Source of the DNA: Chitinophaga pinensis
Lineage (GTDB): Bacteria; Bacteroidota; Bacteroidia; Flavobacteriales_D; Crocinitomicaceae
Length of the DNA: 64,000 bases
Direction: 5' to 3'
NCBI GenBank assembly: GCA_943324745.2
Contig: CALPMT020000008.1
Coordinates: 27,715-91,714 of the forward strand
Positions 1-12,774 of this stretch are shown here, in pieces (the first letter of the stretch is position 1; every line of letters starts with the position of its first letter). The translations under genes and the position numbers were made by a program. The notes beneath the pieces are model-generated. The model was not told the DNA's origin, did no database searches, and saw only the letters and a list, made by a program, of their open reading frames with translations.

Positions 1-56
1 GTATAATTTAAATTTCCATAGTACAAAGGATAGGCATTTGAAGGGTAAATAAAATT

Positions 57-97
57 AAACTCCACTAAAAACAATTCGAGTGGAGTTTGTTTTTTTT
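57..97 (+). terminator. Rho-independent terminator-like hairpin, probably closing a + strand gene upstream of the window; it abuts the stop of the minus-strand gene at 96
   Basis: AAACTCCAC (57-65), 14-nt loop, GTGGAGTTT (80-88), then G plus a T8 run (90-97). Confidence 0.55.
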
Positions 98-680
98 ATT
101 TCTTTAAAATTATCTCATAATACTTATGCTTATTCGAAACCGGAGAAGTCTCAGGAAAAGGAACGACGTACACTTTCATTGTTCGTCCTAGGAAATTTGT
201 TTCACCTAAATAGTCGTATGCAATCTCATCATCTTCATTTTTTCTAGACTTCCAAATTTGCTTTAAGGTTTCGTCCATTTTTAAAAATTCATCGGTAACA
301 CGTTTTCCCATTAACACAATCTTATCTGGGTCAGCATTTTTCAAGCGGTCTTTCAAACTTTCCAAATGCGATGATTCTACCTTCACAGAATTCGAATTTT
401 TACTTGTTATAGCGTTATCATCAATCATATCTGTAAACCCCAAACCATCCGGGTATGCAGATAAGTTTCCGGAAATAAAAACTTCACTGGCCATGTGTTC
501 GAATGGATAGGTGTTTTCTGTACGCGTACATTCACTTATTAACCCAGCATCCTTAAGTATTTTCCAAAAATGAACGCGCGTACAAAAAACGGAACCGATA
601 TTTAGCGCTTCTTCAGTTGCATTTAATCCTATAAAAACAATTCCATTTTTACCTGCTAAAAATTTTGTGTGTATTGACAT
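96..680 (-). CDS. Uracil-DNA glycosylase superfamily protein, family-2 (MUG/TDG)-like, divergent
   Basis: By-eye alignment to E. coli Mug: IVFIGLNATEEALNIGSVFCTRVHFWKILKDAGLI vs [42 protein letters not shown] vs GVTKLVD; IVLMGKRVTDEF vs LAILGKQAYEQGF; VYVVPFPETSPVS vs IWVLPNPSGLS. The Asn of GINPG is retained (GLNAT). Confidence 0.6.
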   Translation of the reverse strand: MSIHTKFLAGKNGIVFIGLNATEEALNIGSVFCTRVHFWKILKDAGLISECTRTENTYPFEHMASEVFISGNLSAYPDGLGFTDMIDDNAITSKNSNSVKVESSHLESLKDRLKNADPDKIVLMGKRVTDEFLKMDETLKQIWKSRKNEDDEIAYDYLGETNFLGRTMKVYVVPFPETSPVSNKHKYYEIILKK

Positions 681-740
681 AATAGTATAGATTTTAAAAT
701 TAATTAATGAAAAAATATTTGATAATAAACGAGTTAAATA

Positions 741-1193
741 TTATTCAAAAGTACCTAACTCTTTTAAATAATTCCTTAGTAAAATCGTGAGATAATTTAA
801 TACAAAATCACATTCAAGGATTGGTTCTTGGTAATTGAATAGTACTTCATCTACTATTTCGTAGTCATCTAATTCTGTTAAATTAGAGGAAGGATTAAAG
901 ATGTTGTAAATGTGTTTTTCAAGTAGGAATCGTCGTGTGTAATTTAGTTTCAGTGCAAGTTGATTATCGACTACTTCAAAATATAAATTAATAATGAATG
1001 GTTTATGAATTGATTTTGAGATTTTAAAAACATAGCAATCGACTTTTCTGTCAAATTTTACATGCAATTGCTCTTTTTCAATTTCTTTTCTCCAGGAGGA
1101 GATCCATAAAAACAATTGATGATTCCATTCAGAGACTAAAAAAAATCCATTTTCAGCATGTAATTTTTCGACATTTTTTTTCCAACTTTCCAT
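741..1193 (-). CDS. Hypothetical cytoplasmic protein, paralogue A of a two-member family (immunity-protein-like)
   Basis: 150 aa, ATG start, no signal peptide. Shares the MESWKKN/MENWKRN start, a W-x3-L-x2-W-x3-W motif and C-terminal DFVLNYLTIL/EFVLSYLNIL with 2031..2450. Confidence 0.6.
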   Translation of the reverse strand: MESWKKNVEKLHAENGFFLVSEWNHQLFLWISSWRKEIEKEQLHVKFDRKVDCYVFKISKSIHKPFIINLYFEVVDNQLALKLNYTRRFLLEKHIYNIFNPSSNLTELDDYEIVDEVLFNYQEPILECDFVLNYLTILLRNYLKELGTFE

Positions 1194-1291
1194 ATTCTTT
1201 TAGATTAAGTGTTACATATAAATAAGGAATGATTTATTTCAAATGTGACATTATCACTCAAAATAAATTTTTAATTAAAATTAAAACAGTA

Positions 1292-2008
1292 TTATAGATA
1301 GTAATAATTGTGTCGGAATCTCTTTTTTACCAATATAACAACATTAATACTTTGACTATTTTTATGGGTAAAGACACAAATTTGAAGATTTCTCAAACGC
1401 TTACTTCCTAAATCTTTTTTTAGTTTTTTGTTTTCAGAAATACCAACAACTATGTTTTTTAAAATCAGATCATCACATATATAGTTTAAGTGTCGCATCA
1501 TCAAACTTTTTTTGGAATAGTAGACATACGCCTTAGCGAAGTCTTCAAGAAATTCATCTTGCCACAAAGTATCCAATTTTAAATGATTATTGAACTTTAC
1601 ATTGTTTATTAAATACAACGTATCTATTAAAGCATAATTAAATGGGATAAAAGTTCCTAGTGTATCTATGGAGGAAACATTAACTCCCCAAGATTTTAAA
1701 AATTCGAATTCTACTTTCGTTGGATTGATTTTAAAATCAATGTGATCTTCGGAAGTGTATTTTAAATTACCATTTTCATCATATGCAGTTTCATCGTAAT
1801 AGTAAAAATGATATGGGTTTTGTTCCAATTCTAACGCTCTTTCTTTTTCTGCTTTTGCGATAGAGTCTTGCATCCTTTTTTCTTTGAAAATTTGGAGAAT
1901 GGCCTTTATTTTTTTTGTGTCTCGTATATTTACGGTTACGGATTTATCTGTTTGACCAAGTAAACAAAAACTTGTAAAAATTAAAAATGTCATCGTTAAA
2001 AGTTTCAT
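1292..2008 (-). CDS. Hypothetical secreted protein or lipoprotein
   Basis: 238 aa; N-terminal hydrophobic segment MKLLTMTFLIFTSFCLLGQ (signal peptide, possible lipobox Cys); no recognisable domain. Confidence 0.55.
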   Translation of the reverse strand: MKLLTMTFLIFTSFCLLGQTDKSVTVNIRDTKKIKAILQIFKEKRMQDSIAKAEKERALELEQNPYHFYYYDETAYDENGNLKYTSEDHIDFKINPTKVEFEFLKSWGVNVSSIDTLGTFIPFNYALIDTLYLINNVKFNNHLKLDTLWQDEFLEDFAKAYVYYSKKSLMMRHLNYICDDLILKNIVVGISENKKLKKDLGSKRLRNLQICVFTHKNSQSINVVILVKKRFRHNYYYL

Positions 2009-2030
2009 AGTATTTAGTTTTAAAGGTGAA

Positions 2031-2450
2031 TTATAAATGATTGTATTTTGTATAATAGTTTATAAACAAAATGTTAAGGTAGGATAGCACAAATTCTTTT
2101 TCATGAATTGGGTCTGTTTTTCTGGATATTTCTTCAATGGTATTTGTATATGTTTCAGTTTGATGATCGTAATGTAGCGTATATTCTATCCATAAAATTT
2201 GATCATAAAGAGCCGTTTGTTCATCAAACTTTAAAAAATAGTATAAACTAATTGTTTGTTCGATATCATTTGAAAGTGAGATTTCAATATCCTTTCCATT
2301 ATTTTTTACTTGAATATTACCAAGCTTAATTTGTCCCATAAACTCCCCCCATTCTTCGACCCATTCTTCTAGTAGTTTATTCCATCCTATGTAGAGGATT
2401 AACTCTTCTTTATGAAGGAATTCCAAAATGTTTCTTTTCCAATTTTCCAT
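2031..2450 (-). CDS. Hypothetical cytoplasmic protein, paralogue B of 741..1193 (immunity-protein-like)
   Basis: 139 aa; same N- and C-terminal signatures as 741..1193; only 22 nt upstream of the secreted-protein gene. Confidence 0.6.
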   Translation of the reverse strand: MENWKRNILEFLHKEELILYIGWNKLLEEWVEEWGEFMGQIKLGNIQVKNNGKDIEISLSNDIEQTISLYYFLKFDEQTALYDQILWIEYTLHYDHQTETYTNTIEEISRKTDPIHEKEFVLSYLNILFINYYTKYNHL

Positions 2451-2487
2451 GGTTATTTTTTTTTAATAATTAGTGAAAAATGGTGAT

Positions 2488-2850
2488 TCAATCGGCATAA
2501 GCCAATTGAATCTGAAGTTTAGATATGAGGTAAGTAGAAAGCATATCTTTTAAGTAGTTGACACCTTTTAAACGAAGTGATTCTCTCAAATTTTCATCTG
2601 AACGGATTAATGAAATTGTTGTAGGTTTTTGAAGGTGAGAGGGAAGTGTTGAAATAATTAGAGTGCCAGAAGATTTAGGTATCTTTTTTAATAATTGATT
2701 AAAAGACTCTCTTATGTGATTTTCATTTTCAATGAATGCATAATCAAAACCAGACTTTTTTTGAGAATTTGGATTTGTTTTAATGCGATTTTTGGTAATT
2801 GAAAAAGTTAAATTGTTTGTGGAATTAATTTGAATAGTTTTCATAATCAT
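2488..2850 (-). CDS. Hypothetical protein
   Basis: 120-aa ORF with ATG at 2850 and 2844, co-directional, 37 nt from the next gene; no motif recognised. Confidence 0.45.
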   Translation of the reverse strand: MIMKTIQINSTNNLTFSITKNRIKTNPNSQKKSGFDYAFIENENHIRESFNQLLKKIPKSSGTLIISTLPSHLQKPTTISLIRSDENLRESLRLKGVNYLKDMLSTYLISKLQIQLAYAD

Positions 2851-3036
2851 AAAAGTTTTAAGTAAATATTAGTTATATATTTAATTAAGCTGTGTGACTA
2901 TGATTATGTGACAATAAATTTTAATAAATTTTAATAAAATTTATAATAACCTCAAATACATTATTTTATTTTTAAATTTTATCTCAAATGAAATTTAAAT
3001 GAACTCAATTCTCAATGCAAATAGAAATAGTACGTA

Positions 3037-3681
3037 TCAATAAAACATATCTCGTCGGTAAATAAACTCGCTTCGAGCTCCTAATGGAAAATCTTGTTTA
3101 TCTTCATTAAAATAGAGATACCTTCTTGTATAAATTTTTGTGATGTTTAGTTCTTTTCGATATTCAGCTATTTGTTTTTTTATCTCTTTATTTTCTCTAC
3201 CATGTAGGGAAATAGAGTGATTTCTACCCTTTATTTTATCTTTTCCAGACACAACTACATACATCTTTTTAATGTAAAACACATCTAATACTTCAAATAA
3301 ATCCATAGCGTATTTGGGTATACGACTTTCAGTTGCAATATAATCTTGGTTATCTTCCATATACTCTTTTGGTCCATTTTTCATATTTGGATCAATATAC
3401 CAGTCTGCGTCGAACAAGGTGGTGTCAATGCGCCAATAATCATATTTAATTAGATTCTCATTACGAAAGGTATCATTGTAAATCTCGAGACAAAACGGGT
3501 AGAATAATGTGATTTTTTTTCCGTGATTATTTGCGAAGACGCAATTATGTTCACTTTTATCAGGTCGTAAGCCAAATTTAAAAATTGTATCTCTATTCTC
3601 TCGTAATGTTACATGCCAAACAAACATCTGAGGGATGATTTTTTTGATACCAGGTACATCGGCTAAATTTTTGTAATTCAT
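3037..3681 (-). CDS. Hypothetical protein (214 aa)
   Basis: Long ORF with ATG start and coding-like composition; no confident domain assignment. Confidence 0.55.
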   Translation of the reverse strand: MNYKNLADVPGIKKIIPQMFVWHVTLRENRDTIFKFGLRPDKSEHNCVFANNHGKKITLFYPFCLEIYNDTFRNENLIKYDYWRIDTTLFDADWYIDPNMKNGPKEYMEDNQDYIATESRIPKYAMDLFEVLDVFYIKKMYVVVSGKDKIKGRNHSISLHGRENKEIKKQIAEYRKELNITKIYTRRYLYFNEDKQDFPLGARSEFIYRRDMFY

Positions 3682-3782
3682 AGTTATAGATTTTAATTAT
3701 TAAACATTAAGAAACCACTATTAAGGAACTATATCACTATTTCATTCAATTCATAGATTATACTATTATTAAACAATTAGAT

Positions 3783-4337
3783 TTACTTTTTTATAAGCAC
3801 TCCAAAATCAACATTAACCGAATAAACATAATCATTATCTATTTTTTTAGCACTTTTCACTATTGCTACACCTACTATATTGGTGAATTCTGAAGATAGA
3901 TCTTCGCAAAGCATTATTTCTTTATGCTTTGGGGAACTGTCAAAAGCTGTAATCATCCTATTAGCAATTTCAGTGATAGTTGCAATATTTTTTATAGGTT
4001 AATATGCTATTTGAATCTCACTCCAAATATTTTTATTTGGAAGCATTTCAATCCTTTGACCGAAAGTTAGTTCAATATGATCTTTTATATCAAATTGCTC
4101 GTCATGTGGTAATTTATCATAATGCACTACATGAATTAAATTGGAGCATTGAACAAGATACTTGGCATGATATCGGGCTACTTGGGAAACTTGCGAGTCA
4201 TATTTAACGGGACCTAATTTATGTTGTTTACGATAAACATTAAGTTGTTTAATAAATTCGGTTTCTAAAGTAGATTGTGCGTTTGACTTTTCTGCAAAAA
4301 GTGACAGTATACAAATCACATAAAATAATTTTTTCAT
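3783..4337 (-). pseudogene. CAP/SCP (YkwD-like) secreted protein gene interrupted by one in-frame TAA
   Basis: The track ORF (4337-3999) has a signal peptide plus a CAP N-terminal half (LNVYRKQHKLGPVKYDSQVSQVARYHAKYL). After the TAA at 4001-3999 the same frame stays open to a TAA at 3785-3783. It encodes the CAP C-terminal half (AFDSSPKHKEIML...IVGVAIVKS...YVYSVNVDFG). Confidence 0.7.
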
Positions 4338-4433
4338 AATAATTTGATTTTAAATGATTAATGATTTTATTAATTCTCATTTGACCAATATTTCGTAAAA
4401 ATTTCATTAGTATATTTTGAAGAAAACAAAATT

Positions 4434-4916
4434 TCATATAGAAAAACATTTTTCTAAAATTTCCATCGTTTTGTTTTCAATACCAGGGTATTTTGACTCT
4501 CTATTTCCAGCCACATTTAAAATTATTTTTCTAGATTTTTTGTTAAAAATTTCTTGCACAAAATTCACTATTTTTTCGGAAGCATCTAGATCGTTAATAT
4601 CCACTAATACATACTCTTTCTCGAATTTTTCACAGATTTTTTTAGTTAAATCAGAACCTCTAGATTTTACCCCAGTTAGTATAACAGTAGCATCTGTTTT
4701 ACGTACATTTTGTTCCGTTCTATCTTTATAATCAGATTTAGTAGACTCATACATACTATATCTAACTTTAAGACTAAGATCTATTCCGTCTTCAGTTTTA
4801 CACCCTTTAGGTAAACAACCACCAGTAGCGATTCCTGCTTTTTTTGCTGCTTTTAGAGCACCTAGATCTACACCAGTTTGACCGCCTGATACAATTTTTA
4901 ATGTTAAATTTTTCAT
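4434..4916 (-). CDS. SLOG-superfamily protein, putative molybdenum-carrier / YpsA-like family
   Basis: N-terminal KIVSGGQTGVDLGALKAAKKAGIATGGCLPKG matches the SGGQTGVD..AL...GG..P.G signature of that family (from memory, Pfam PF12694-like); 160 aa stand-alone. Confidence 0.6.
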   Translation of the reverse strand: MKNLTLKIVSGGQTGVDLGALKAAKKAGIATGGCLPKGCKTEDGIDLSLKVRYSMYESTKSDYKDRTEQNVRKTDATVILTGVKSRGSDLTKKICEKFEKEYVLVDINDLDASEKIVNFVQEIFNKKSRKIILNVAGNRESKYPGIENKTMEILEKCFSI

Positions 4917-5251
4917 AAATAATGTTTAAGAGTTTATATTTCCTTATCATTATTTATAAGTGTAGTTTCATTAAAATTGTGTCAAAAAAAAGTGTAAATT
5001 AATTTATATTTTGAAAATAAATTATTAACTATCATTTGTTGAGTTAGTTAACTTATTTCTTTTTTATCTGAATATTTGTTAAAACATCAATAGTTAATGT
5101 TTCATTATGGTGTTTGATTGATTTCAAAGGAAAATATACTCTTGTAAAAAATAATACTTACTTGATTAGAAATTCTATAAAAGGCGAGTAATAATATATG
5201 CGTGATATATTATTAAAATCTAAAAGTTTATTTTTTTCAATTTTTCATACA

Positions 5252-5286
5252 AATAAAAAACGCTCCTACAATAAGTAAGAGCGTTT
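5252..5286 (-). terminator. Rho-independent terminator closing the 11187-5313 operon
   Basis: On the minus strand: AAACGCTC, 13-nt loop, GAGCGTTT, then TTTATTTG; it starts 26 nt after the stop at 5313. Confidence 0.7.
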
Positions 5287-5312
5287 GTTTTATTTAGTTG
5301 TTTTATTAAAGT

Positions 5313-6395
5313 TTAAGGTAAATCAAAAGCATTTCTAATGAATAGTTCATGGGGATTTTGATTGGTAGCATCATAAGTACAACATAGAAAATATGGTTGT
5401 TGGGTGGGGGGAGGTAAACTCCCTTTTAAACTTAGACTATTAGGAATTGTATGACAAATTAAACTATGTAATAAAGGTAAAGTACCTATATTAATTTTAT
5501 ACGCAAGATAATGATGCACGGTTGGTGGACCACTGAATGCAACTTTTATATTAGTATTTATATCAGCATTTTGATCCTCTTTTAAACCTATTAAAATATC
5601 ACCAATTTTAGTTTGAAGTCGTTTATAAAAAAAGTCTGATACACCTTTAGATTTAATTTTTTCCTTATATTACTTGTAAATTTTAAAGAAAATGGAAATA
5701 AATCAATTAATAAATATCCTTCTTTTGCAAGTTCTAATAATAGATTTATTTTTTCATTTGAATTTGTAGGTTTAGCGTAAGCAATTCTTGTTGGCTTTGA
5801 ATCACGAAAAGCCTTTACTGGAGCACTTAACCAAGATGTAGAATCCAAATGATTTATATTATAGAAATAAGTTTCTCCAGAACTAGGTGCAGCTTCACCG
5901 ATCATAACGTATTTAAGAGTTTGCTTAGTCAATTTGTTTCCATCACTATCTATTAGTTCTCCAATTTCATTAAAAAACGGATGTGGATAATACCAATCAC
6001 TACATAATTTAGGACCTCTGGTTTTTCGTGTGTCCTTACCTCTAAAAATGTCTAAATAATCTTCAAACATATTTTCTCTAATTAAATAGTCATAATTGTC
6101 GTCAGGGCAATTATTTGGGTTGTCATTTTCTTTTAGAGTTCTTCTAATAGCTAGACTTTTAAAATGATCGTCCCACAATTCTTTATACATATTCCTTTGT
6201 AACATGAATCCAGGGGTTTGCTGAAGTTTCTCTCTTAATCTAGATAATATTTTACGACCAAATTCTTCACTAATTACCAAGTTCAACCCATTTTTGTTGA
6301 ATAAGTGCAATAAACTTGTAGGATTCATCTTCGGAATAGGAACAATTAATTAATAGTTCAAAATATTCTTTTTCTTTTTTTGTTAAGTTATACAT
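5313..6395 (-). pseudogene. Frameshifted gene (two frame changes): sigma-70 region-4-like HTH module plus a C-terminal domain with UDG-like motifs
   Basis: ATG 6395 gives MYNLTKKEKEYFELLINCSYSEDES...WVELGN, then TAG at 6272-6270. The paralogue alignment continues in track ORF 6328-5591. A third frame is open 5669-5313 and overlaps across an A6 run (5657-5662). Motifs: YVMIGEAAPSSG, LIDLFPF, CHTIPNSLS. Confidence 0.6.
6210..6384. repeat. Direct repeat copy 1 (HTH-encoding module shared with 7875..8065)
   Basis: Aligns with 7875-8065 apart from one 21-nt indel; the 48-nt core 6321-6368 vs 8006-8053 is 45/48 identical. Confidence 0.8.
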
Positions 6396-6412
6396 GATTA
6401 TGAAATTGTTAA

Positions 6413-8896
6413 TTAAAAACCTAAATCCCCCATATCAGCAGATAATTTTGCAGTACTACTGTCACCATAAATATATTTATATATTAACTTTGCTTGAGCT
6501 CTAAACTTTGATTTAGCTTTAAAATTTTCATTAGCTACCCAATCTGAAAATAGTTCATCTGTCTCTTTGTTAAATTTCAAAACTTTATCTCCCTCATATT
6601 TCCATACTACATAATTCCTGTCTTCACCTTCTACTGGATTTGGATTTGGTACTATGAGTTTATATAAAGTTTTATCTTCAAATTTTTCAAAAGCAATATT
6701 ATCATATTTCCCTGTAAATATTAGTTCTTCTTTTTCGCTAATATTTAAATCATTTAAACATTCTTTTAATGATTCTAAATCTTCCTTTTTTACTCCTTCT
6801 TTTAACTCTTTTTTTATTTCATCTTGTATCAGTTGAATAGTCTCTGGATCTAATGTACAATCAGATATAGCTTCAAGCGAGTCATTAAAAATTAGACAAG
6901 TTTTTAAGTGCATTAGCATAGGATTATCTATGTAATTTAAAGATGAATCCGCTAAATAACGATATTGAGCAGAATCATTTAAATAATGATGTTTTCTTAA
7001 ATCTACAATCTTATTTAAGATTTCAGAAATATGTTGAGATATTAAATTTTCATATAATCGATACGGACTATTTTTCTTTGTAGGGTTCATTAATTCAAAT
7101 GCTTTCTCCAAATCTTCATCGCCTTTTATCATCCAATATGCAATAATTTGAGCAATTGCTTCTTGTGTTTTTTTATGCCCCGTATTGTAACCGATTCTCC
7201 AATTGGCATTATTAGCAATAGGCCAATGAGAAACCCAATGCCCTAATTCGTGCATCAATACAATTAATCGAACATCTTTTTCATCGATGTTATCATGGTT
7301 TTTAACATATGCTTCAATAACATCTTTATACAATATAATTTTACCTTCATTTGTTACATTAAGACAACCTAATTTAGTTTTTGTAGATCTATAAACACCT
7401 AATCTATTTATGTTAAAAGATTCAGAGTTTACATACTTATCCAAATCAAACAAATCTTTTTTCTCAACACCTGTTAAAGTTTCGTGATTTGCTATTTTAT
7501 CTTTAATATTTTTGGGAAGGTCTGTTTTTATGCAATTTTCATATCGGAATATACCTTCTTCTTTATCAGAATTTTTCGTATGTAATTCGTTAATTAATGA
7601 TTCATTTAACTCTTCCAATTTGTTTTTAAAATAAACTTTTGGGAAACGATCTATTTCAAACTTGAAATTTGGTTTTTTAGTATCATTTTTATCTTCATTT
7701 TGAAGTATCTTTTTTAATTCAAGCATTTTCTCCAACTCTTCAGGTGAAAACTGATATGCTACTAATTTATTTGAGTTAGTTTTTGTATACATATTAGCTA
7801 AAAGAAAATCTAAAGCTTCAATACCTTCTGTATTGTCTGTGTCTAGGGTAATAAAATGAAGTCCTTCCTTTATACCAGGAACACTTAGAAGTTTTTCCCG
7901 TAATCGAGATAATAATTTTCGACCATTAACTTCTTTATTACCAAGTTCAACCCATCGTTTTTGAACAAGTGCTAAAAATGATTTTTTTTTATCGATAGGC
8001 TCATTGGATTCATCTTCGAAATAGGAACAATTAATTAATAATTCAAAATATTTTTTTTCTTGTGGTGATAATCTGATTGAAGAAGAATATACTTTTCGGG
8101 CAAAATCTCTAATTTTTTCTACGTGGTCTTTCGTGTCAAAGTCTTCATACATTTCATCCGATAACTCAGGAAGACCATTCAAGTTTTCTATATTCGTGAA
8201 TGCAGATTTTTGTGTACTGTCATATGCTTCATCTGCTATACCATCTAAAAGAGAATTCCATTTTTTTTGTGCCTTTATAATATTTGCATCTTCTTTAAAT
8301 TCATCTTCCAAGACATTAATTGACCAAAGACTATTCATCATTCGAATAAAATATCCTGGACTTATGTCATTTATGGATTGTTTCGGAATCCGAGTATATC
8401 CCTCCACTAATCGATCATAGGCTGCATTTTCATCTTGTTTTATTAATAATCTAAAATAATTTTCATATATTCTTATTATTGAATTTCGTTCTTTTTTTGT
8501 CCAATGAGGAAATGTTTTTTCTAAAAATTCGTCGGATAATGTTAAATAACTTCTGATATCATTAGAATTATAAAAAAGATGGTTTAATTGATTTTGTATA
8601 TTTTTTAAGGTATTTCTTTTGTATTTAATTATTTCAGGCTCAACTATTACTGCTTTTTTATCTGTGTCATCTTCTTTAATCTTCTTTTTAGGAACGTATT
8701 TTTTAATTACTTCTATATTAATTATTGCATATCTTGCTTTTTCAATAATTTCTTCATTGGTGATATCCGGATAATATTCTTTGCATTTTTCGTTGAACCA
8801 GTTAGCTAATTTTTTAGCGGATTCCTTTTTTTTATCGGATATTTTCCCTTTTTCAATTGTTAAATTTTCGAATATTCTTGTTAAATCGTTTAACAT
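6413..8896 (-). CDS. Large multidomain protein: helical N-terminal region, sigma-70 region-4-like HTH (about aa 276-340), HExxH Zn-metallopeptidase site (ImmA/IrrE-like spacing)
   Basis: 827 aa, ATG start. LSPQEKKYFELL...GRKLLSRLREKLLS resembles a sigma r4/LuxR-type HTH. VLMHELGHWVSHW (H549-E550-x-x-H553, nt 7252-7235) has Glu 26 residues downstream (QEAIAQIIAYW). Confidence 0.85.
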   Translation of the reverse strand: MLNDLTRIFENLTIEKGKISDKKKESAKKLANWFNEKCKEYYPDITNEEIIEKARYAIINIEVIKKYVPKKKIKEDDTDKKAVIVEPEIIKYKRNTLKNIQNQLNHLFYNSNDIRSYLTLSDEFLEKTFPHWTKKERNSIIRIYENYFRLLIKQDENAAYDRLVEGYTRIPKQSINDISPGYFIRMMNSLWSINVLEDEFKEDANIIKAQKKWNSLLDGIADEAYDSTQKSAFTNIENLNGLPELSDEMYEDFDTKDHVEKIRDFARKVYSSSIRLSPQEKKYFELLINCSYFEDESNEPIDKKKSFLALVQKRWVELGNKEVNGRKLLSRLREKLLSVPGIKEGLHFITLDTDNTEGIEALDFLLANMYTKTNSNKLVAYQFSPEELEKMLELKKILQNEDKNDTKKPNFKFEIDRFPKVYFKNKLEELNESLINELHTKNSDKEEGIFRYENCIKTDLPKNIKDKIANHETLTGVEKKDLFDLDKYVNSESFNINRLGVYRSTKTKLGCLNVTNEGKIILYKDVIEAYVKNHDNIDEKDVRLIVLMHELGHWVSHWPIANNANWRIGYNTGHKKTQEAIAQIIAYWMIKGDEDLEKAFELMNPTKKNSPYRLYENLISQHISEILNKIVDLRKHHYLNDSAQYRYLADSSLNYIDNPMLMHLKTCLIFNDSLEAISDCTLDPETIQLIQDEIKKELKEGVKKEDLESLKECLNDLNISEKEELIFTGKYDNIAFEKFEDKTLYKLIVPNPNPVEGEDRNYVVWKYEGDKVLKFNKETDELFSDWVANENFKAKSKFRAQAKLIYKYIYGDSSTAKLSADMGDLGF
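7875..8065. repeat. Direct repeat copy 2 (inside the 827-aa gene)
   Basis: See 6210..6384. Confidence 0.8.
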
Positions 8897-8960
8897 ATTT
8901 AAAATTTTTAATTTTTATATTTCAAACCTAAATATTATATTCCGATATAAAAAATGAAAA

Positions 8961-9242
8961 TCATCTAAACCAGTTAATTAGTATTTCAATCTCTATTTTA
9001 TCTTCTTCAAAATCCTCATTTAGAAGACGTTTAATAGCATTGTACTTGATTTCAATCTGCTTTAATTGGTCATATAATTCTTTTGTTTTTACAGTATGCG
9101 CAGTAAGTAAATCATATCTCTGGTCCTTAATTAAAGTCTTGACTTTTTCAGTTTCTTCTTGTAACAAAATAAAAGCGGACTGTAGGTTTTTTAGACCATT
9201 CATTATTTCTTGTAATTCATTTTTTAAAAATTCGTTTGTCAT
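8961..9242 (-). CDS. Small coiled-coil protein (93 aa)
   Basis: ATG at 9242-9240 overlaps the TGA (9241-9239) of the upstream gene as ATGA. The sequence MTNEFLKNELQEIMNGLKNLQSAFILLQEETEKVKTLIKDQ... is heptad-like and charged. Confidence 0.6.
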   Translation of the reverse strand: MTNEFLKNELQEIMNGLKNLQSAFILLQEETEKVKTLIKDQRYDLLTAHTVKTKELYDQLKQIEIKYNAIKRLLNEDFEEDKIEIEILINWFR

Positions 9243-9736
9243 CGTAAATAAAAGTTTAGTAAATAAAATAGTCCATAAAACAAAGCACTTAATCCGAGAG
9301 AACAAAGTAAAAATGGGTAACTATTTTTTAGATAATACCAAAAAGGTGTAATTCGATACCAATCTAAAGAATCATCGAAGATAGAATCTCTATCCTCATT
9401 TATCACACGATTTGGACCCCATTCTTTTTCATCCATCGGATTACATTCGATATCTTCTTCTAAAATATCTTCTTGAATCAGGCATCGATCTATCACTAAT
9501 TTTCGTGTTTGAACAATATAATAAACATCCATTATATACAAATTTGCAAGTATTGGTAGTATGAAATAGGTTCCTATATTGACTTCGATGAAGAAAACTA
9601 CAAAAAATAGAAATAATTGAAAATAAAAAGGAACTCCGTTTGGTAATGGAATCTTTCCAAAGACTTTCCCAAATCGTTGGTGTAATTCTAACTTTCTTAA
9701 GTAATAAACTGTTTTATCTAATTCATTTTCTGTCAT
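9239..9736 (-). CDS. Small integral membrane protein (165 aa)
   Basis: Hydrophobic hairpin FYFQLFLFFVVFFIEVNIGTYFILPILANLYIM and C-terminal TM PFLLCSLGLSALFYGLFYLLNFY, with an acidic loop between them; 29 nt downstream of the AAA+ gene. Confidence 0.7.
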   Translation of the reverse strand: MTENELDKTVYYLRKLELHQRFGKVFGKIPLPNGVPFYFQLFLFFVVFFIEVNIGTYFILPILANLYIMDVYYIVQTRKLVIDRCLIQEDILEEDIECNPMDEKEWGPNRVINEDRDSIFDDSLDWYRITPFWYYLKNSYPFLLCSLGLSALFYGLFYLLNFYLR

Positions 9737-9765
9737 AAGAGTTGAGTTTTTGATAATTATTATTC

Positions 9766-11187
9766 CTAACAGCGAAATCCAATTTTCCCATTGGATTTTA
9801 ATAAACCATCTTCTTGCAATATCGTTTCAATTTCATTTTGATTTAGTTCGCCTAATTCGCTTAATAATTCCATTTTAAGTTCGCAGTTTACTAATTGTGC
9901 AGGAGTCCAGTCGGATTGAATAATTTGTTTAGAAAATACTTTTGAAATTCGTTGATTGATTGGGGAAGCATGCATTAATAGTTCTCTTACTTCTACAGAT
10001 GGAAAATCAATTTTTGATTTAAATAAAAATCTTCGTTCGAATGCTTTATCCATATTTTTCTCCATATTGGTTGTCGCAATTAATATCCCTTTGAAGTTTT
10101 CTAATAATTCTAAAATCTGCGCTTGTAGTTGATTTGAGAAGATGTCATTACTTTGGTTAACAGCAACGCGTTTATTCATTAAACCATCCGCTTCATTCAA
10201 AAGAAGTATTACAGGACGGTCTGTTTCTCGTGCTAAAGTATGATATGCTTTAAAAAGTTGTTTAATGTTTTTTTCTGATTCACCAATCCATTTTGAAACA
10301 ATTTTAGTGTAATCTGCATGCATCAAAATTGCATTTGTGTTTTTTGTCAATTGATATACAAATTCTGTTTTCCCAGTGCCCGAAGGACCAAATAATAAAG
10401 TAGTCAATGAATGCTGCAAGTGTTTTTTAGCGTGAATGATTCCTTCTAGCGAATCGAAAAGTTTTCTGTTTGAAGCATTGTAATGTAAAGTGATTGGTTT
10501 GATGTCGTTTGAATCGATTAAAGAATAAAAATCATACTGTTTTGTTTTTATTTCTTCTAAAATTGGCACATCCAATCCGTTCATTAACATGACACATCTT
10601 TTAGTCGGAGCAATTCTAGCACAAATTCCATTCTCAATTTTTACGTTTAACAATTCTTGCTCCATGTTTTTCGCTTCTTGGTCTATAAACAATTGTGTTA
10701 TTTGATAATGTTCAGTAGGGGATAATTTAATTTCACTTAAGAAAACAGGATGATCATTTTCTAAAAAATGACTAACAACATAAAGTAAAATTTTTATTTC
10801 TAGATCATTTATTTTGTTGCTAATTATAAAGTCTAAAAATGTGTTTTGAAAGTTTTTTCCAAAAAATGCATGCTTAAAATCAAGAAATTTTTTCGCATTG
10901 GTGTTTGCTAAAAAGAAATTGAAAAGTAGATATCCTTCCTTATAAAAGAGGTTTAGTTCACTTTCCTCAACATTGGAGGATTGATTTAATTCAACCGATA
11001 AGGAGGAACTATTTCTCCCAATTTTGAGTTTTATTTTACCCGATTTTAAATTTAAAAACAAACATTTTAGATTGGTTAAAGAATGACCATTAAAAAAGTT
11101 TTCGTTTAAACAAATGGTTTCTTGGTTTGCCAGTTTTTGAATTGCTAACTTTAAACTTGACACACTATTTTTCTGGATACTATTCAT
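9766..11187 (-). CDS. Classic-clade AAA+ ATPase with an unassigned N-terminal region of about 230 aa
   Basis: Walker A LLFGPSGTGKTE, Walker B VILLLNEADGL, sensor-1 ILIATTNM, arginine pair AFERRF, then IDFPS. Confidence 0.9.
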   Translation of the reverse strand: MNSIQKNSVSSLKLAIQKLANQETICLNENFFNGHSLTNLKCLFLNLKSGKIKLKIGRNSSSLSVELNQSSNVEESELNLFYKEGYLLFNFFLANTNAKKFLDFKHAFFGKNFQNTFLDFIISNKINDLEIKILLYVVSHFLENDHPVFLSEIKLSPTEHYQITQLFIDQEAKNMEQELLNVKIENGICARIAPTKRCVMLMNGLDVPILEEIKTKQYDFYSLIDSNDIKPITLHYNASNRKLFDSLEGIIHAKKHLQHSLTTLLFGPSGTGKTEFVYQLTKNTNAILMHADYTKIVSKWIGESEKNIKQLFKAYHTLARETDRPVILLLNEADGLMNKRVAVNQSNDIFSNQLQAQILELLENFKGILIATTNMEKNMDKAFERRFLFKSKIDFPSVEVRELLMHASPINQRISKVFSKQIIQSDWTPAQLVNCELKMELLSELGELNQNEIETILQEDGLLKSNGKIGFRC

Positions 11188-11342
11188 AGAGTTGGATTTA
11201 TATATGATTAATATTGAGTAAATTACTAATGATTTTGTATTCTTTTAAAACCGTTAGAATCGGTTTAATCTATTATTTTAGATAAATCAGGAAATAGAAT
11301 ACGATTTTTGAACTTAAATAAGTCTAATATATATTTGCACTA

Positions 11343-11804
11343 TTAATCTATACTATATATTCCATACGGATTACTAATACCTTTAAAACTTAAATTACCT
11401 CGTTCATCAACGCTAAAAGTAATTTGCCAAGGGATTAATGCATCCCCAGTTTCGGGATCTGTAGTCTGATATTGAAATCCAAGAACGTCTTTATCGTCAA
11501 GTATGTTTTTTAAACCGTGCTCTAAAATATAAATAGCAAATTCATATTCCTCAAAAGAAGATCCTTTAGAAATGGAATCAAATTTTACTTTATCTAATGT
11601 CGTTTTACACTTTGTCTTTAAAGTGTCTATTTCAACAACAAGAGTAACGATGGAATCATTTTTTATTTCTTGACTTAATCCAGTGAATAGGATACTTGAA
11701 GAAAGTATGATTAAAACTAACATATACTTGCATTTGTTAGACTGATTGTTTTTGACATTAAAATCTAATGGGACTTTTGTTGACATTATCAACTTACTTT
11801 TCAT
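11343..11804 (-). CDS. Hypothetical membrane-anchored or secreted protein
   Basis: 153-aa ORF; hydrophobic segment MLVLIILSSSILFTGLS after a basic N-terminus (an internal start at 11723 is possible); no domain recognised. Confidence 0.5.
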   Translation of the reverse strand: MKSKLIMSTKVPLDFNVKNNQSNKCKYMLVLIILSSSILFTGLSQEIKNDSIVTLVVEIDTLKTKCKTTLDKVKFDSISKGSSFEEYEFAIYILEHGLKNILDDKDVLGFQYQTTDPETGDALIPWQITFSVDERGNLSFKGISNPYGIYSID

Positions 11805-12266
11805 AATCTTTTATTTTAAGAGTGAATATTCGCTTCTTAAATAGATAACTAACAAAAGATAATTTTTGTGACAGAATTTTTAATGTTTTTAAAAACTATT
11901 TTAATAACGTGTAATTCTTTAATATATTGATTGTGATTTTGAATTTCAGAAAGGAGCAGAAATTAAATGGATTTCTTTAATACAGAGGGAGGGTTTAATT
12001 TATTAAATCAGAATGTTTCAATTTTTACTTTGTTAAAATCAACTTATAATCTTCTGCGTAAATCTGTATGTAATCCCCCTTTTTTTCCTCCACTAATATA
12101 TTATCCTTTTATTATTTTCTAAAATAATTGAAATTTTCTCATCAAACATTTATTCAGTTTGTTACGTTTCAATACCAAACATTACCTCTTTGCGAAAAAA
12201 TTATTTAATAGAATAAGTTTTCAATTGTGGGCTAGATGTGGGCTAGTTCTTAACTTTGCCCTAAAC

Positions 12267-12325
12267 AAAAAAACGAGTTTTAACTAAATTTCTCTTTACG
12301 ATACTCTTCATTTAAAACTCGTTTT
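12267..12325 (-). terminator. Hairpin plus T-run downstream of ssrA (large-loop terminator candidate)
   Basis: On the minus strand: AAAACGAGTTTTAA (12325-12312), 28-nt loop, TTAAAACTCGTTTT (12283-12270), then a T-run; about 50 nt past the tmRNA 3' end. Confidence 0.5.
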
Positions 12326-12373
12326 CTTTATCTCTGATTCGTCACGCGTAACTAAATACTCGTCACTTCCTTG

Positions 12374-12774
12374 TGGAGCTGGAGGGGGTTGAACCCTCGT
12401 CCAAACATAGAATTTTCAAGGCTTCTACATGTTTAGTTTTTGGTTAATTTTCGATTGTACAACGGACAAAAACACCCAATATACAACTTATCTTCTGTTG
12501 TCTTATGCCTTCCACGAAGTAAGGTTGGCACCAGTCTTAAATGAATGATTCTCCCGAGTTCCATGCCTAAAAGACGGAGGCAGCGGAGGGAGAACTTGTT
12601 CCGCCTACTATGATTCAGCTGGAATTAAGCTTTATCTATCTAATAGATTAAGCAGCAAGTGCGTATGACGTGTTGTCAATTATAGTTCGAGACAGGATAT
12701 TAAAGAGCTCCACCTCAACGCTCTACATGCTTACACTTGACTATCGCTTATGCTGTCAAATCCAATACAGCCCC
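12374..12774 (-). ncRNA. ssrA: tmRNA (transfer-messenger RNA)
   Basis: 5' GGGGCTGTATTGGATTTGACAGC. 3' GGACGAGGGTTCAACCCCCTCCAGCTCCA forms a T-arm plus a 7-bp acceptor stem with a G3-U pair. Tag frame 12677-12648 reads GAC AAC ACG TCA TAC GCA CTT GCT GCT TAA (...DNTSYALAA stop). The terminal CCA is not fully encoded. Confidence 0.95.

Follow-up and report, generated by a model that had tools for sequence, protein, structure and literature searches.

IetAS, which consists of the AAA+ ATPase IetA and a protease, represents a toxin-antitoxin or defence pair with the ATPase acting as the antitoxin, and it was originally described as a plasmid-stabilising toxin-antitoxin pair (PMC13069673). Brig1 (PMC11078745) and Brig2 (bioRxiv 10.1101/2025.10.29.685425) are stand-alone anti-phage DNA glycosylases belonging to the uracil-DNA glycosylase (UDG) family. 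In the present study, a five-gene operon was analysed, located at positions 5313-11187 on the minus strand of a 64,000-nucleotide (nt) stretch of contig CALPMT020000008.1 (assembly GCA_943324745.2, Chitinophaga pinensis; the whole stretch is hereafter called the window). The operon combines an AAA+ ATPase with a protein containing a zincin-like core and a gene suggestive of the UDG fold. To our knowledge, glycosylases acting as defence effectors have so far been found only as stand-alone genes (Brig1, Brig2, and Dag). Judging from sequence comparisons, we favour, at a confidence slightly short of even, the interpretation that a conflict module not yet named, most likely directed against phages or other mobile elements, has this operon as its core and is carried on an approximately 12-kb horizontally mobile island. 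A nucleoside triphosphatase, a protease, and an effector grouped on a defence island follow a familiar logic, but these particular components, and the way they are combined, are unfamiliar.

All five genes are encoded on the minus strand and follow each other in the order AAA+ ATPase (473 amino acids (aa), 9766-11187; matching PF00004), membrane protein of 165 aa with approximately three transmembrane (TM) segments according to hydropathy (9239-9736), 93-aa helical, coiled-coil-like protein (8961-9242), 827-aa multidomain protein (6413-8896), and a last gene (5313-6395) identified as a pseudogene by sequence and alignment. As calculated from the coordinates, the intergenic gaps amount to 29, 64, and 17 nt, and the start codon of the 93-aa gene overlaps the preceding stop codon (ATGA). 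The operon ends with an intrinsic-terminator-like hairpin followed by a T-run (5258-5286, minus strand), featuring a 12-bp stem with five GC pairs. Gene coordinates, spacings, and terminator are thus as stated in the original prediction, and the five open reading frames (ORFs) form a genuine operon. The assignment of the 165-aa product as a membrane protein is likewise borne out by hydrophobic stretches at aa 31-75 and 141-162.

A joint function of the AAA+ ATPase, the helical-module/zincin protein, and the UDG-fold-like protein is suggested by a protein fusion, by a gene order kept down to approximately 35% identity, and by the tight packing of the genes. The fusion was found in locus L011 (9522-11687), where a 721-aa protein is composed of a helical module, the zincin core, and a C-terminal MUG-like UDG domain. 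This protein shares 30% identity with the core of the 827-aa protein, and its UDG domain is 59% identical to UDG194, a 194-aa MUG-like protein encoded at the far end of the window's island (96-680, minus strand). The fusion gene is preceded by an AAA+ gene whose product is 35% identical to that of the window and is followed by two NADAR genes. UDG194 matched PF03167 with 30.1 bits, above the gathering threshold of 24.3, which assigns it to the UDG superfamily. Its family features the MUG-like GLNAT motif with an invariant Asn20, and the family profile retrieved no UDG-family chain at E<=1 other than MUG (weakly, E=0.35). In L023, L028, and L033, a UDG194 homologue is located directly downstream of the zincin gene. 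Since the two are fused or adjacent in other lineages, UDG194 appears to be linked in function to the zincin protein.

Distant zincin homologues were searched for with a 12-sequence core alignment, yielding 30 genome loci. An AAA+ gene of the family found in the window is located directly upstream of the zincin gene in L011, L015-17, L022, L023, L026, L028, L038, L042, L044, and L076, and downstream of it in L035. The AAA+ identity in the loci with the AAA+ gene upstream falls to 33-43%. The next gene after the zincin gene belongs to the family of the last gene of the operon (named GEAAP after one of its motifs) in L017, L036, L038, L040, L044, L076, and L083. The order AAA+, helical-module/zincin protein, UDG-fold-like protein accordingly recurs in distant Bacteroidota and in two Proteobacteria. 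Variants of this arrangement were also observed: in L009 and L049, the AAA+ gene is followed by a gene for a helical-module-only protein, and in L045 and L046, the AAA+ and GEAAP genes are separated by genes for other proteins (DUF2779 in L046). Co-occurrence of the AAA+ and 827-aa genes across Bacteroidota, suggested earlier as a check, is seen as synteny in close and distant loci, but many zincin genes and most GEAAP genes occur alone. Similarly, of the five-gene set proposed as a functional unit, the AAA+, zincin, and UDG-like genes recur, whereas the coiled-coil gene was detected in close relatives only. Distant homologues of the 165-aa protein are encoded near zincin or GEAAP genes in L028, L035, L036, and L084.

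The solitary zincin and GEAAP genes, together with the differing island content among strains, would be expected if unrelated island genes had come together by chance in the operon, being co-transcribed only owing to tight packing and sharing no joint function. We attach little probability to this explanation. The fusion of the zincin and UDG194-like parts in one protein argues against it, as do the translational overlap and short gaps in the operon, and the order AAA+, zincin, UDG-like is kept in different families and phyla at AAA+ identities of only 33-43%.

Among close relatives, the gene order is kept in eight related contigs, and the 165-aa protein is 86-97% conserved across the related loci. 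Compared with the related genome L001, identity values amount to 97% for the AAA+ ATPase, 95% for the 165-aa protein, 72% for the 827-aa protein, and 65% for the last gene, while flanking genes encoding a 2-oxoglutarate oxygenase and a glycosyltransferase reach 95% and 86%, respectively. The low values for the 827-aa protein and the last gene result from the replacement of discrete segments. In the 827-aa protein, these segments comprise aa ~425-482 and the C-terminal tail, for which the DNA identity to L001 is just 74% or no match was obtained. Both genes are therefore mosaic and hypervariable, whereas the AAA+ gene is conserved in the same genome pair. The tail itself (aa ~735-827; 6416-6694, minus strand) was modelled with low confidence and is encoded as a separate ORF in L005 and L008. 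A further strain-level variant is seen in L015 (8531-11146) and L016, which belong to the GTDB representative metagenome-assembled genome Flavobacteriia RE-26jul17-249; here, the large protein has a length of 871 aa, and the last gene is missing completely.

The AAA+ ATPase matched PF00004 with an E-value of 2.5e-22 (80.2 bits, cut-off 21.2), placing it in the classic clade. Its Vps4-like ATPase core (aa 255-410) follows a family-specific N-terminal domain (aa 1-250), and its best PDB matches were VAT, Cdc48, and Vps4. In an alignment of 71 homologues of 440-510 aa, the previously named motifs GPSGTGKT, ILLLNEAD, ATTN, and FERRF, as well as the pore loop SKWIGESEK, were all present and essentially invariant. 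The pore loop follows the Vps4-like consensus S-K-W-[IV]-G-E-[TS]-E-K, and the sensor-1 Asn and the RR fingers are invariant. The protein therefore resembles the Vps4/Cdc48 unfoldases in its Walker A motif, KWxG pore loop 1, sensor-1 Asn, and double Arg finger, but differs from them in having a single ATPase domain, an unrelated 250-aa N-domain, and a Walker B motif in which Asn replaces Asp. This motif reads hhhhNEAD, with the Asn at codon 331 being invariant (71 out of 71), which points to a changed coordination of Mg2+ and to an ATPase that works slowly, in the manner of a switch. The N-domain of approximately 250 residues is conserved inside the family and found no relative in Pfam and PDB searches, in agreement with its earlier description as unassignable. 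Several full-length homologues carry the IMG label 'enamine deaminase RidA', which is unsupported by the Pfam and PDB searches of the N-domain and is probably a mislabel.

To relate the gene set to named defence systems, 15 island proteins, the L011 fusion, and an intact orthologue of the last gene were compared with PADLOC-DB v2.0, a version that predates Brig1 and Brig2. Only the AAA+ ATPase matched anything, namely IetA (5e-21) and TRIP13 within the ATPase core, and no system-specific model was found. The NCBIfam model IteA (NF042959) was also matched in the core only (3e-20), with 72.6 bits compared to a cut-off of 510, and searches of phages and plasmids returned core-level AAA+ matches only. 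The window locus shares with IetAS the pairing of an ATPase with a protease-like protein and the location on mobile islands, and IetA provides the best PADLOC matches of the AAA+ core. However, the N-domain of the window ATPase is unrelated, its score lies far below that of an IetA/IteA member, and its Walker B carries NE. Furthermore, IetS is a subtilisin-like serine protease, whereas the partner in the window is a zincin-like metalloprotein; no protease match, and hence no IetS-type protease, was obtained for the operon or island proteins in PADLOC and Pfam. The window operon additionally encodes UDG-like, membrane, and coiled-coil proteins. The IetAS-type logic invoked in the original prediction consequently applies to the kind of pairing, but not to the proteins themselves. 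As had been anticipated for PADLOC, no model for the set exists in PADLOC, Pfam, NCBIfam, or PHROG, and no description of it was found in the literature.

The 827-aa protein is composed of N-terminal helical modules, a zincin-like core, and a variable C-terminal tail, and it found no match in Pfam, NCBIfam, PHROG, or PADLOC. A word-index search identified nine close homologues featuring two alternative N-terminal architectures and one common core. When 1.84 billion representatives were searched exhaustively with a profile (E<=1e-3), 176 representative clusters with the zincin domain were obtained, mostly from freshwater Bacteroidota, all sharing a block of approximately 165 positions. This block reads EGxIILFKDRIE … VRFVVLMHELGHW(L/F)(S/T)HW … NWxxG(Y/F) … (K)THE(A/S)LAQLIAYW, with AYRFSxxE…RFPEVY upstream of it, and is represented in the 827-aa protein by EGxIILFKDRIE…VLMHELGHWxxHW…THEALAQ. 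The core extends over aa ~378-700 (6797-7765, minus strand). HELGH occupies aa 549-553 (7238-7252, minus strand) and is followed by His557 and by Glu579 (7160-7162, minus strand). In an alignment of 99 sequences, at least 90% retain H549, E550, H553, H557, and E579, and W554 and W566 are also nearly invariant. The HExxH motif and the downstream Glu are thus conserved family-wide, as is characteristic of a predicted gluzincin-type active site. The motif and conserved Glu previously noted are real, whereas the spacing in the 827-aa protein is 25 residues instead of 26.

The family profile matched PDB entry 3E11, a 'predicted zincin-like metalloprotease', with E=0.004 in the strand-strand-HExxH block. 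Weak matches to Pfam Zincin_1 (PF06262) were obtained for 6 of the 99 homologues (best 6.3e-5; 13-18 bits against a gathering threshold of 22.4), and the 827-aa protein itself did not match this model. Zincin_1/3E11 is the only detectable remote relative, with an alignable LLGxY…IIL(F/Y)…VxHExxH block, but its members are proteins of approximately 100 aa without AYRFSxxE, RFPEVY, HWxxHW, NWxxGY, THEALAQLIAYW, and the helical shell of approximately 320 aa. This indicates a relation at the superfamily level only. We conclude from these comparisons that the core represents a new zincin-like family with a predicted gluzincin-type site and putative peptidase activity. In the AlphaFold2 model, the core (aa ~380-700) reached predicted local distance difference test (pLDDT) values >90 and the helices at 120-200 and 258-337 values of ~85-94, while the C-terminal 100 residues were modelled poorly. 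Neither signal peptides nor TM segments were found in the zincin and UDG-like proteins.

Upstream of the core, a helical, helix-turn-helix (HTH)-like module is located at aa ~255-345 (LSPQEKKYFELL…NGRKLLSRLREKL; 7862-8134, minus strand), for which AlphaFold2 predicted four confident helices (258-337). A basic helix, NFRKxxxRLRxxL, is conserved over 23 N-terminal modules, and the basic-helix module is common to 43 of the 52 long members of the zincin family. For the type-B module, HTH_28 (E=0.008) and Sigma70_r4_2 (E=0.16) were found, both under their cut-offs. The N-terminus of the 827-aa protein obtained no HTH match in Pfam, and the PDB profile search returned no sigma or HTH protein; the assignment to sigma-70 region 4 is thus unsupported.

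The ImmA/IrrE family (COG2856, Peptidase_M78), to which the site spacing had been likened, offers a further comparison. Similarities comprise a minimal HExxH with a Glu approximately 25 residues downstream, a helical DNA-binding-type module, and ties to mobile elements or stress responses. In contrast, the 827-aa protein carries an additional conserved His in its site (HExxHWxxHW), is considerably larger than ImmA/IrrE, and has other flanking domains, and the island lacks a gene for an XRE repressor substrate. Moreover, no PF06114 (Peptidase_M78/ImmA) match to the 827-aa protein was found at E<=0.1, this family is absent from those matched by the 99 homologues, and no HTH_3/XRE match was obtained among the island proteins, so the suggested kinship was not upheld. 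These results bear on the idea that the locus is a DNA-damage or stress module in which an IrrE/ImmA-like protease-regulator controls base-excision glycosylases with the AAA+ ATPase as a chaperone. It would account for the presence of a helical DNA-binding-like module and HExxH…E in one protein, for two UDG-fold-like genes on the island, and for cpYpsA/SLOG and NADAR neighbours pointing to nucleotide or adenosine diphosphate (ADP)-ribose chemistry. We nevertheless regard it as improbable: besides the missing M78 similarity and XRE-type partner, the genes are patchily distributed, island-borne, strain-variable, and pseudogenised, unlike housekeeping repair genes, and restriction-modification (RM) systems and an integrase in the flanks favour a conflict role.

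The last gene encodes a short helical module followed by the 'GEAAP' domain. Its first ~65 codons duplicate codons ~276-345 of the 827-aa gene, the copy at 6273-6386 (minus strand) showing 84-86% DNA identity to 7937-8071. The shared module reported earlier is thus confirmed as a duplication, but its HTH label found no significant match. The frameshifted state of the gene, with its start at 6395, was also corroborated. A +1 insertion near 6272 creates a TAG codon, and one T is lost at 5651/5650 compared with the L001 orthologue. The near-identical metagenomic protein P0316 reads through both lesion sites and represents an intact allele that confirms the gene model, while the metagenomic P0434 carries the first frameshift only. 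Records of the truncated 245-aa product exist for 23 contigs, which argues against an assembly error, and together with P0316 and P0434, this indicates that the frameshifts are biological. The 190 nt upstream of 6205 were at first considered a recombination scar, since the start of the L001 orthologue corresponds to position 6205; this was refuted by P0316, which is in frame there.

The GEAAP family comprises 188 homologues and matched neither Pfam families nor PDB sequences. KYIMIGEAAP, G-x-LL-x-D-x-FPF, SGPP, and PHxLFIRNAF are near-invariant. In the AlphaFold2 model of the intact L001 orthologue (pLDDT 89.7), four strands of a parallel sheet are each followed by one of these motifs. GEAAP (compared with a GEAPG-like motif A), PHxLFIR (compared with an HPxxLLR-like motif B), and the modelled four-strand alpha/beta core would fit the UDG fold. 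In structure searches of this model with Foldseek, UDGs accounted for approximately 9 of the top 50 matches in PDB (TM-scores up to 0.47, reached by MUG), none of them significant. The UDG-like character of the last gene is therefore suggestive only.

The operon is part of an island of approximately 12 kb (47-12122, minus strand), the borders of which were derived from the comparison with L008. It starts approximately 250 nt from the 3' end of the transfer-messenger RNA (tmRNA) gene ssrA (12371-12774), which is encoded on the same strand and is the only Rfam family in the window. The described position immediately 3' of the tmRNA gene consequently applies to the island border, but not to the operon, which starts approximately 1.2 kb from ssrA. 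The gene in between is the first of the island (11343-11804, minus strand), encodes a 153-aa protein with one N-terminal TM segment or signal anchor, and is kept upstream of the AAA+ gene in related loci. In L001, the island block is collinear at the same ssrA site, whereas in L008 it is located between rpmA/transposase fragments and serS, and in L005-L007 a histone-deacetylase-family gene adjoins the operon part (from a 155-aa gene to the last gene). Distant AAA+/zincin islands abut tmRNA (L044), tRNA-Ser (L038), and tRNA-Cys (L028) genes, resulting in tmRNA or tRNA genes in four lineages.

Both island ends were searched for direct repeats of the att type, but the only finding was a terminator-like hairpin at the distal border of the island in L001 (18555-18620). 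This hairpin closely resembles the terminator following ssrA in the window (12265-12325), while the ssrA gene of L001 itself is followed by a different hairpin; it may be a trace of island insertion. Contigs L003 (1-10574) and L004 (1-10254), originating from different samples, represent circular permutations of an approximately 10.6-kb unit corresponding to window positions 11200-1696. At their junction, the middle of a 238-aa gene (~1696) is joined to a position 13 nt upstream of the AAA+ start codon. Either circularisation of part of the island or a tandem duplication could explain this unit.

These circular permutations are compatible with the main rival explanation, namely that the genes constitute a maintenance, transfer, or addiction module serving the island itself and not host immunity. 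The varied chromosomal sites at tmRNA and tRNA genes, an integrase flanking one AAA+/GEAAP locus, PcfJ (three times) and DUF3987 in the flanks of distant loci, and the first description of IetAS as a plasmid-stabilising pair (PMC13069673) also fit this explanation, as does the similarity of the 93-aa protein to MobC_2 (6e-4; 19.9 bits compared to a cut-off of 27.5) and MobA (1e-3). However, both similarities are sub-threshold and fall inside the coiled-coil segment. The window island and the circular unit contain no integrase, relaxase, replication initiator, or coupling-protein gene, and since the junction cuts a gene, a tandem duplication fits equally well. Furthermore, no relative of the zincin and GEAAP families was found in 72,556 plasmids (PLSDB). 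We therefore judge a role in island maintenance to be unlikely. In line with these results, the association of homologues with an extracellular contractile injection system (eCIS) or a conjugative machine, named beforehand as an observation speaking against a defence function, was not found: genes for eCIS sheath, tube, and baseplate proteins, relaxases, and coupling proteins are all absent from the window island.

Beyond the operon, the island encodes a cpYpsA/SLOG protein (4434-4916), a split CAP gene (3783-4337), and further genes without assigned function at 3037-3681, 2488-2850, 2031-2450, 1292-2008, and 741-1193, all on the minus strand. The CAP gene is divided into ORFs of 112 and 57 aa compared with orthologues of 183-184 aa and is probably a second pseudogene of the island. 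In L001 and L005-L008, a secreted CAP-like gene is located between the AAA+ and membrane protein genes, which is missing in the window and in L003. The 150-aa (741-1193) and 139-aa (2031-2450) proteins are paralogues (MExWKxN…) without a database match, recur beside distant AAA+, zincin, and GEAAP genes (L009 5647-6108, L036, and L076), and may be immunity-like or adaptor proteins. The 214-aa protein (3037-3681), also without a database match, recurs in L024, L057, and L063 and as a 405-aa protein in L038.

Such genes could belong to a secreted-effector or polymorphic-toxin cassette, in which the AAA+ ATPase would be a secretion or chaperone ATPase for the CAP-domain proteins and further exported products, and the small paralogues would confer immunity. 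CAP-like secreted genes occur in or beside the operon in many copies, proteins with a signal peptide or TM segment are encoded at 11804-11343 and 2008-1292, the 139-aa and 150-aa paralogues accompany distant AAA+ and zincin genes, and a 120-aa protein weakly matched Imm64. Yet the Imm64 match is far under threshold, and genes for secretion systems, Rhs/PAAR, and eCIS structural proteins are absent. The zincin and UDG-like proteins are devoid of export signals, and the conserved neighbours are AAA+, zincin, and UDG-like genes and not AAA+ and CAP genes, making this possibility very improbable.

The genes surrounding the AAA+-linked loci are in better agreement with a conflict module. A survey of 108 flanking ORFs from 14 such loci, given here as raw counts without a genomic background, identified NADAR (8 out of 108), PcfJ (3), Eco57I (2), and single SIR2, ADP-ribosylglycohydrolase, HipA, and DUF3987 matches in Pfam, and RtcR, type IIG RM, PglZ, WYL, MzaA, QatD, mad2, and candidate systems in PADLOC. 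The PDC-M42C matches that were checked correspond to a NADAR protein. Locus L046 has an integrase and an RM gene of the Eco57I type at its edges. On the contig of the window, a type I HsdR gene and a fragment of Endonuclease_NS adjoin the island just beyond window position 1 (L095 18979-22484); L001 carries a beta-lactamase-family gene at this position. The cpYpsA/SLOG, NADAR, SIR2, and ADP-ribosylglycohydrolase neighbours hint at ADP-ribose or nicotinamide adenine dinucleotide chemistry in these islands. No relative of the zincin and GEAAP families was found in 2.9 million viral contigs (IMG/VR). A mobile, tRNA/tmRNA-linked, RM-flanked, and NADAR-rich setting combined with absence from viruses represents the usual signature of conflict systems, as do the diversification of zincin tail and downstream gene in the manner of cassettes and the strain-level gain, loss, and decay.

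Several results weigh against a conflict module. Within 10 kb, approximately 6 of the 16 long zincin genes with available upstream sequence and nearly all of the short ones (~300 aa) have no AAA+ gene, and most of the 48 metagenomic GEAAP genes lack either partner. The whole AlphaFold2 model of the 827-aa protein obtained no Foldseek match in PDB, and HTH character and DNA binding of the N-terminal modules are deduced from the pattern only. Regarding the GEAAP domain, UDGs were the top four Foldseek matches in BFVD, but with a non-significant best E-value of 0.078, and hhalign detected no similarity between the GEAAP and UDG194 families. The UDG-like motifs reported for the last gene are accordingly reflected in the ranking of weak structural matches, but not in a significant one. 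The Walker B Asn may entail weak ATPase activity. Finally, two fixed frameshifts and the split CAP gene indicate that the module is decaying in the window strain and not essential. Taken together, the candidate conflict system proposed at the outset is in accordance with the RM and NADAR flanks, the mobile island, and the conserved order, but less so with the many partners that occur alone.

If the operon is the core of a conflict module, the UDG-fold proteins would be its effectors, acting as base-excising enzymes on invader DNA, perhaps on modified-base DNA as for Brig1 and Brig2, or alternatively on the DNA of the host as a toxin causing abortive infection. The role of sensor or regulator would fall to the helical-module/zincin protein, which might bind nucleic acids via its basic helix and cleave itself or a partner, with the swappable C-terminal tail as a candidate specificity or pro-peptide element. 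The AAA+ protein could be a slow, switch-like unfoldase that restrains protease and effector or feeds substrate to the protease, being antitoxin-like as IetA. The three-TM and coiled-coil proteins would be lineage-restricted accessories, possibly a membrane anchor or a second effector. Because the last gene is dead in the window strain, any remaining activity would depend on UDG194.

A more specific proposal, which we consider doubtful at present, is that the Vps4-like AAA+ switch and the zincin family gate UDG-fold glycosylase effectors, in some cases fused to the protease, and thereby represent a new class of regulated glycosylase-based immunity, in which the swappable zincin tail and interchangeable UDG-like cassettes would supply specificity. 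Such effectors would remove bases from the DNA of invaders, which may be hypermodified, or from that of the host so that infection is aborted. Brig1 and Brig2, which provide a precedent for divergent UDGs as immune effectors, resemble this arrangement by description, also being UDG-fold proteins on AT-rich islands near mobile-element and defence genes, but they act as single genes, whereas the UDG-like genes of the window family are coupled or fused to zincin and AAA+ genes.

Should the module prove functional, it would be a multi-gene immune system with glycosylase-type effectors under the control of an ATPase and a protease. It would also establish three protein families without a database model: the family of the zincin-like domain, the UDG-like GEAAP family, and a subfamily of AAA+ proteins featuring an invariant Asn in Walker B and a novel N-domain. 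The fusion of zincin and UDG domains and the cassette swapping lead to testable hypotheses on which parts sense and which parts act. The hosts are freshwater Bacteroidota, for which defence repertoires have been sampled poorly so far.

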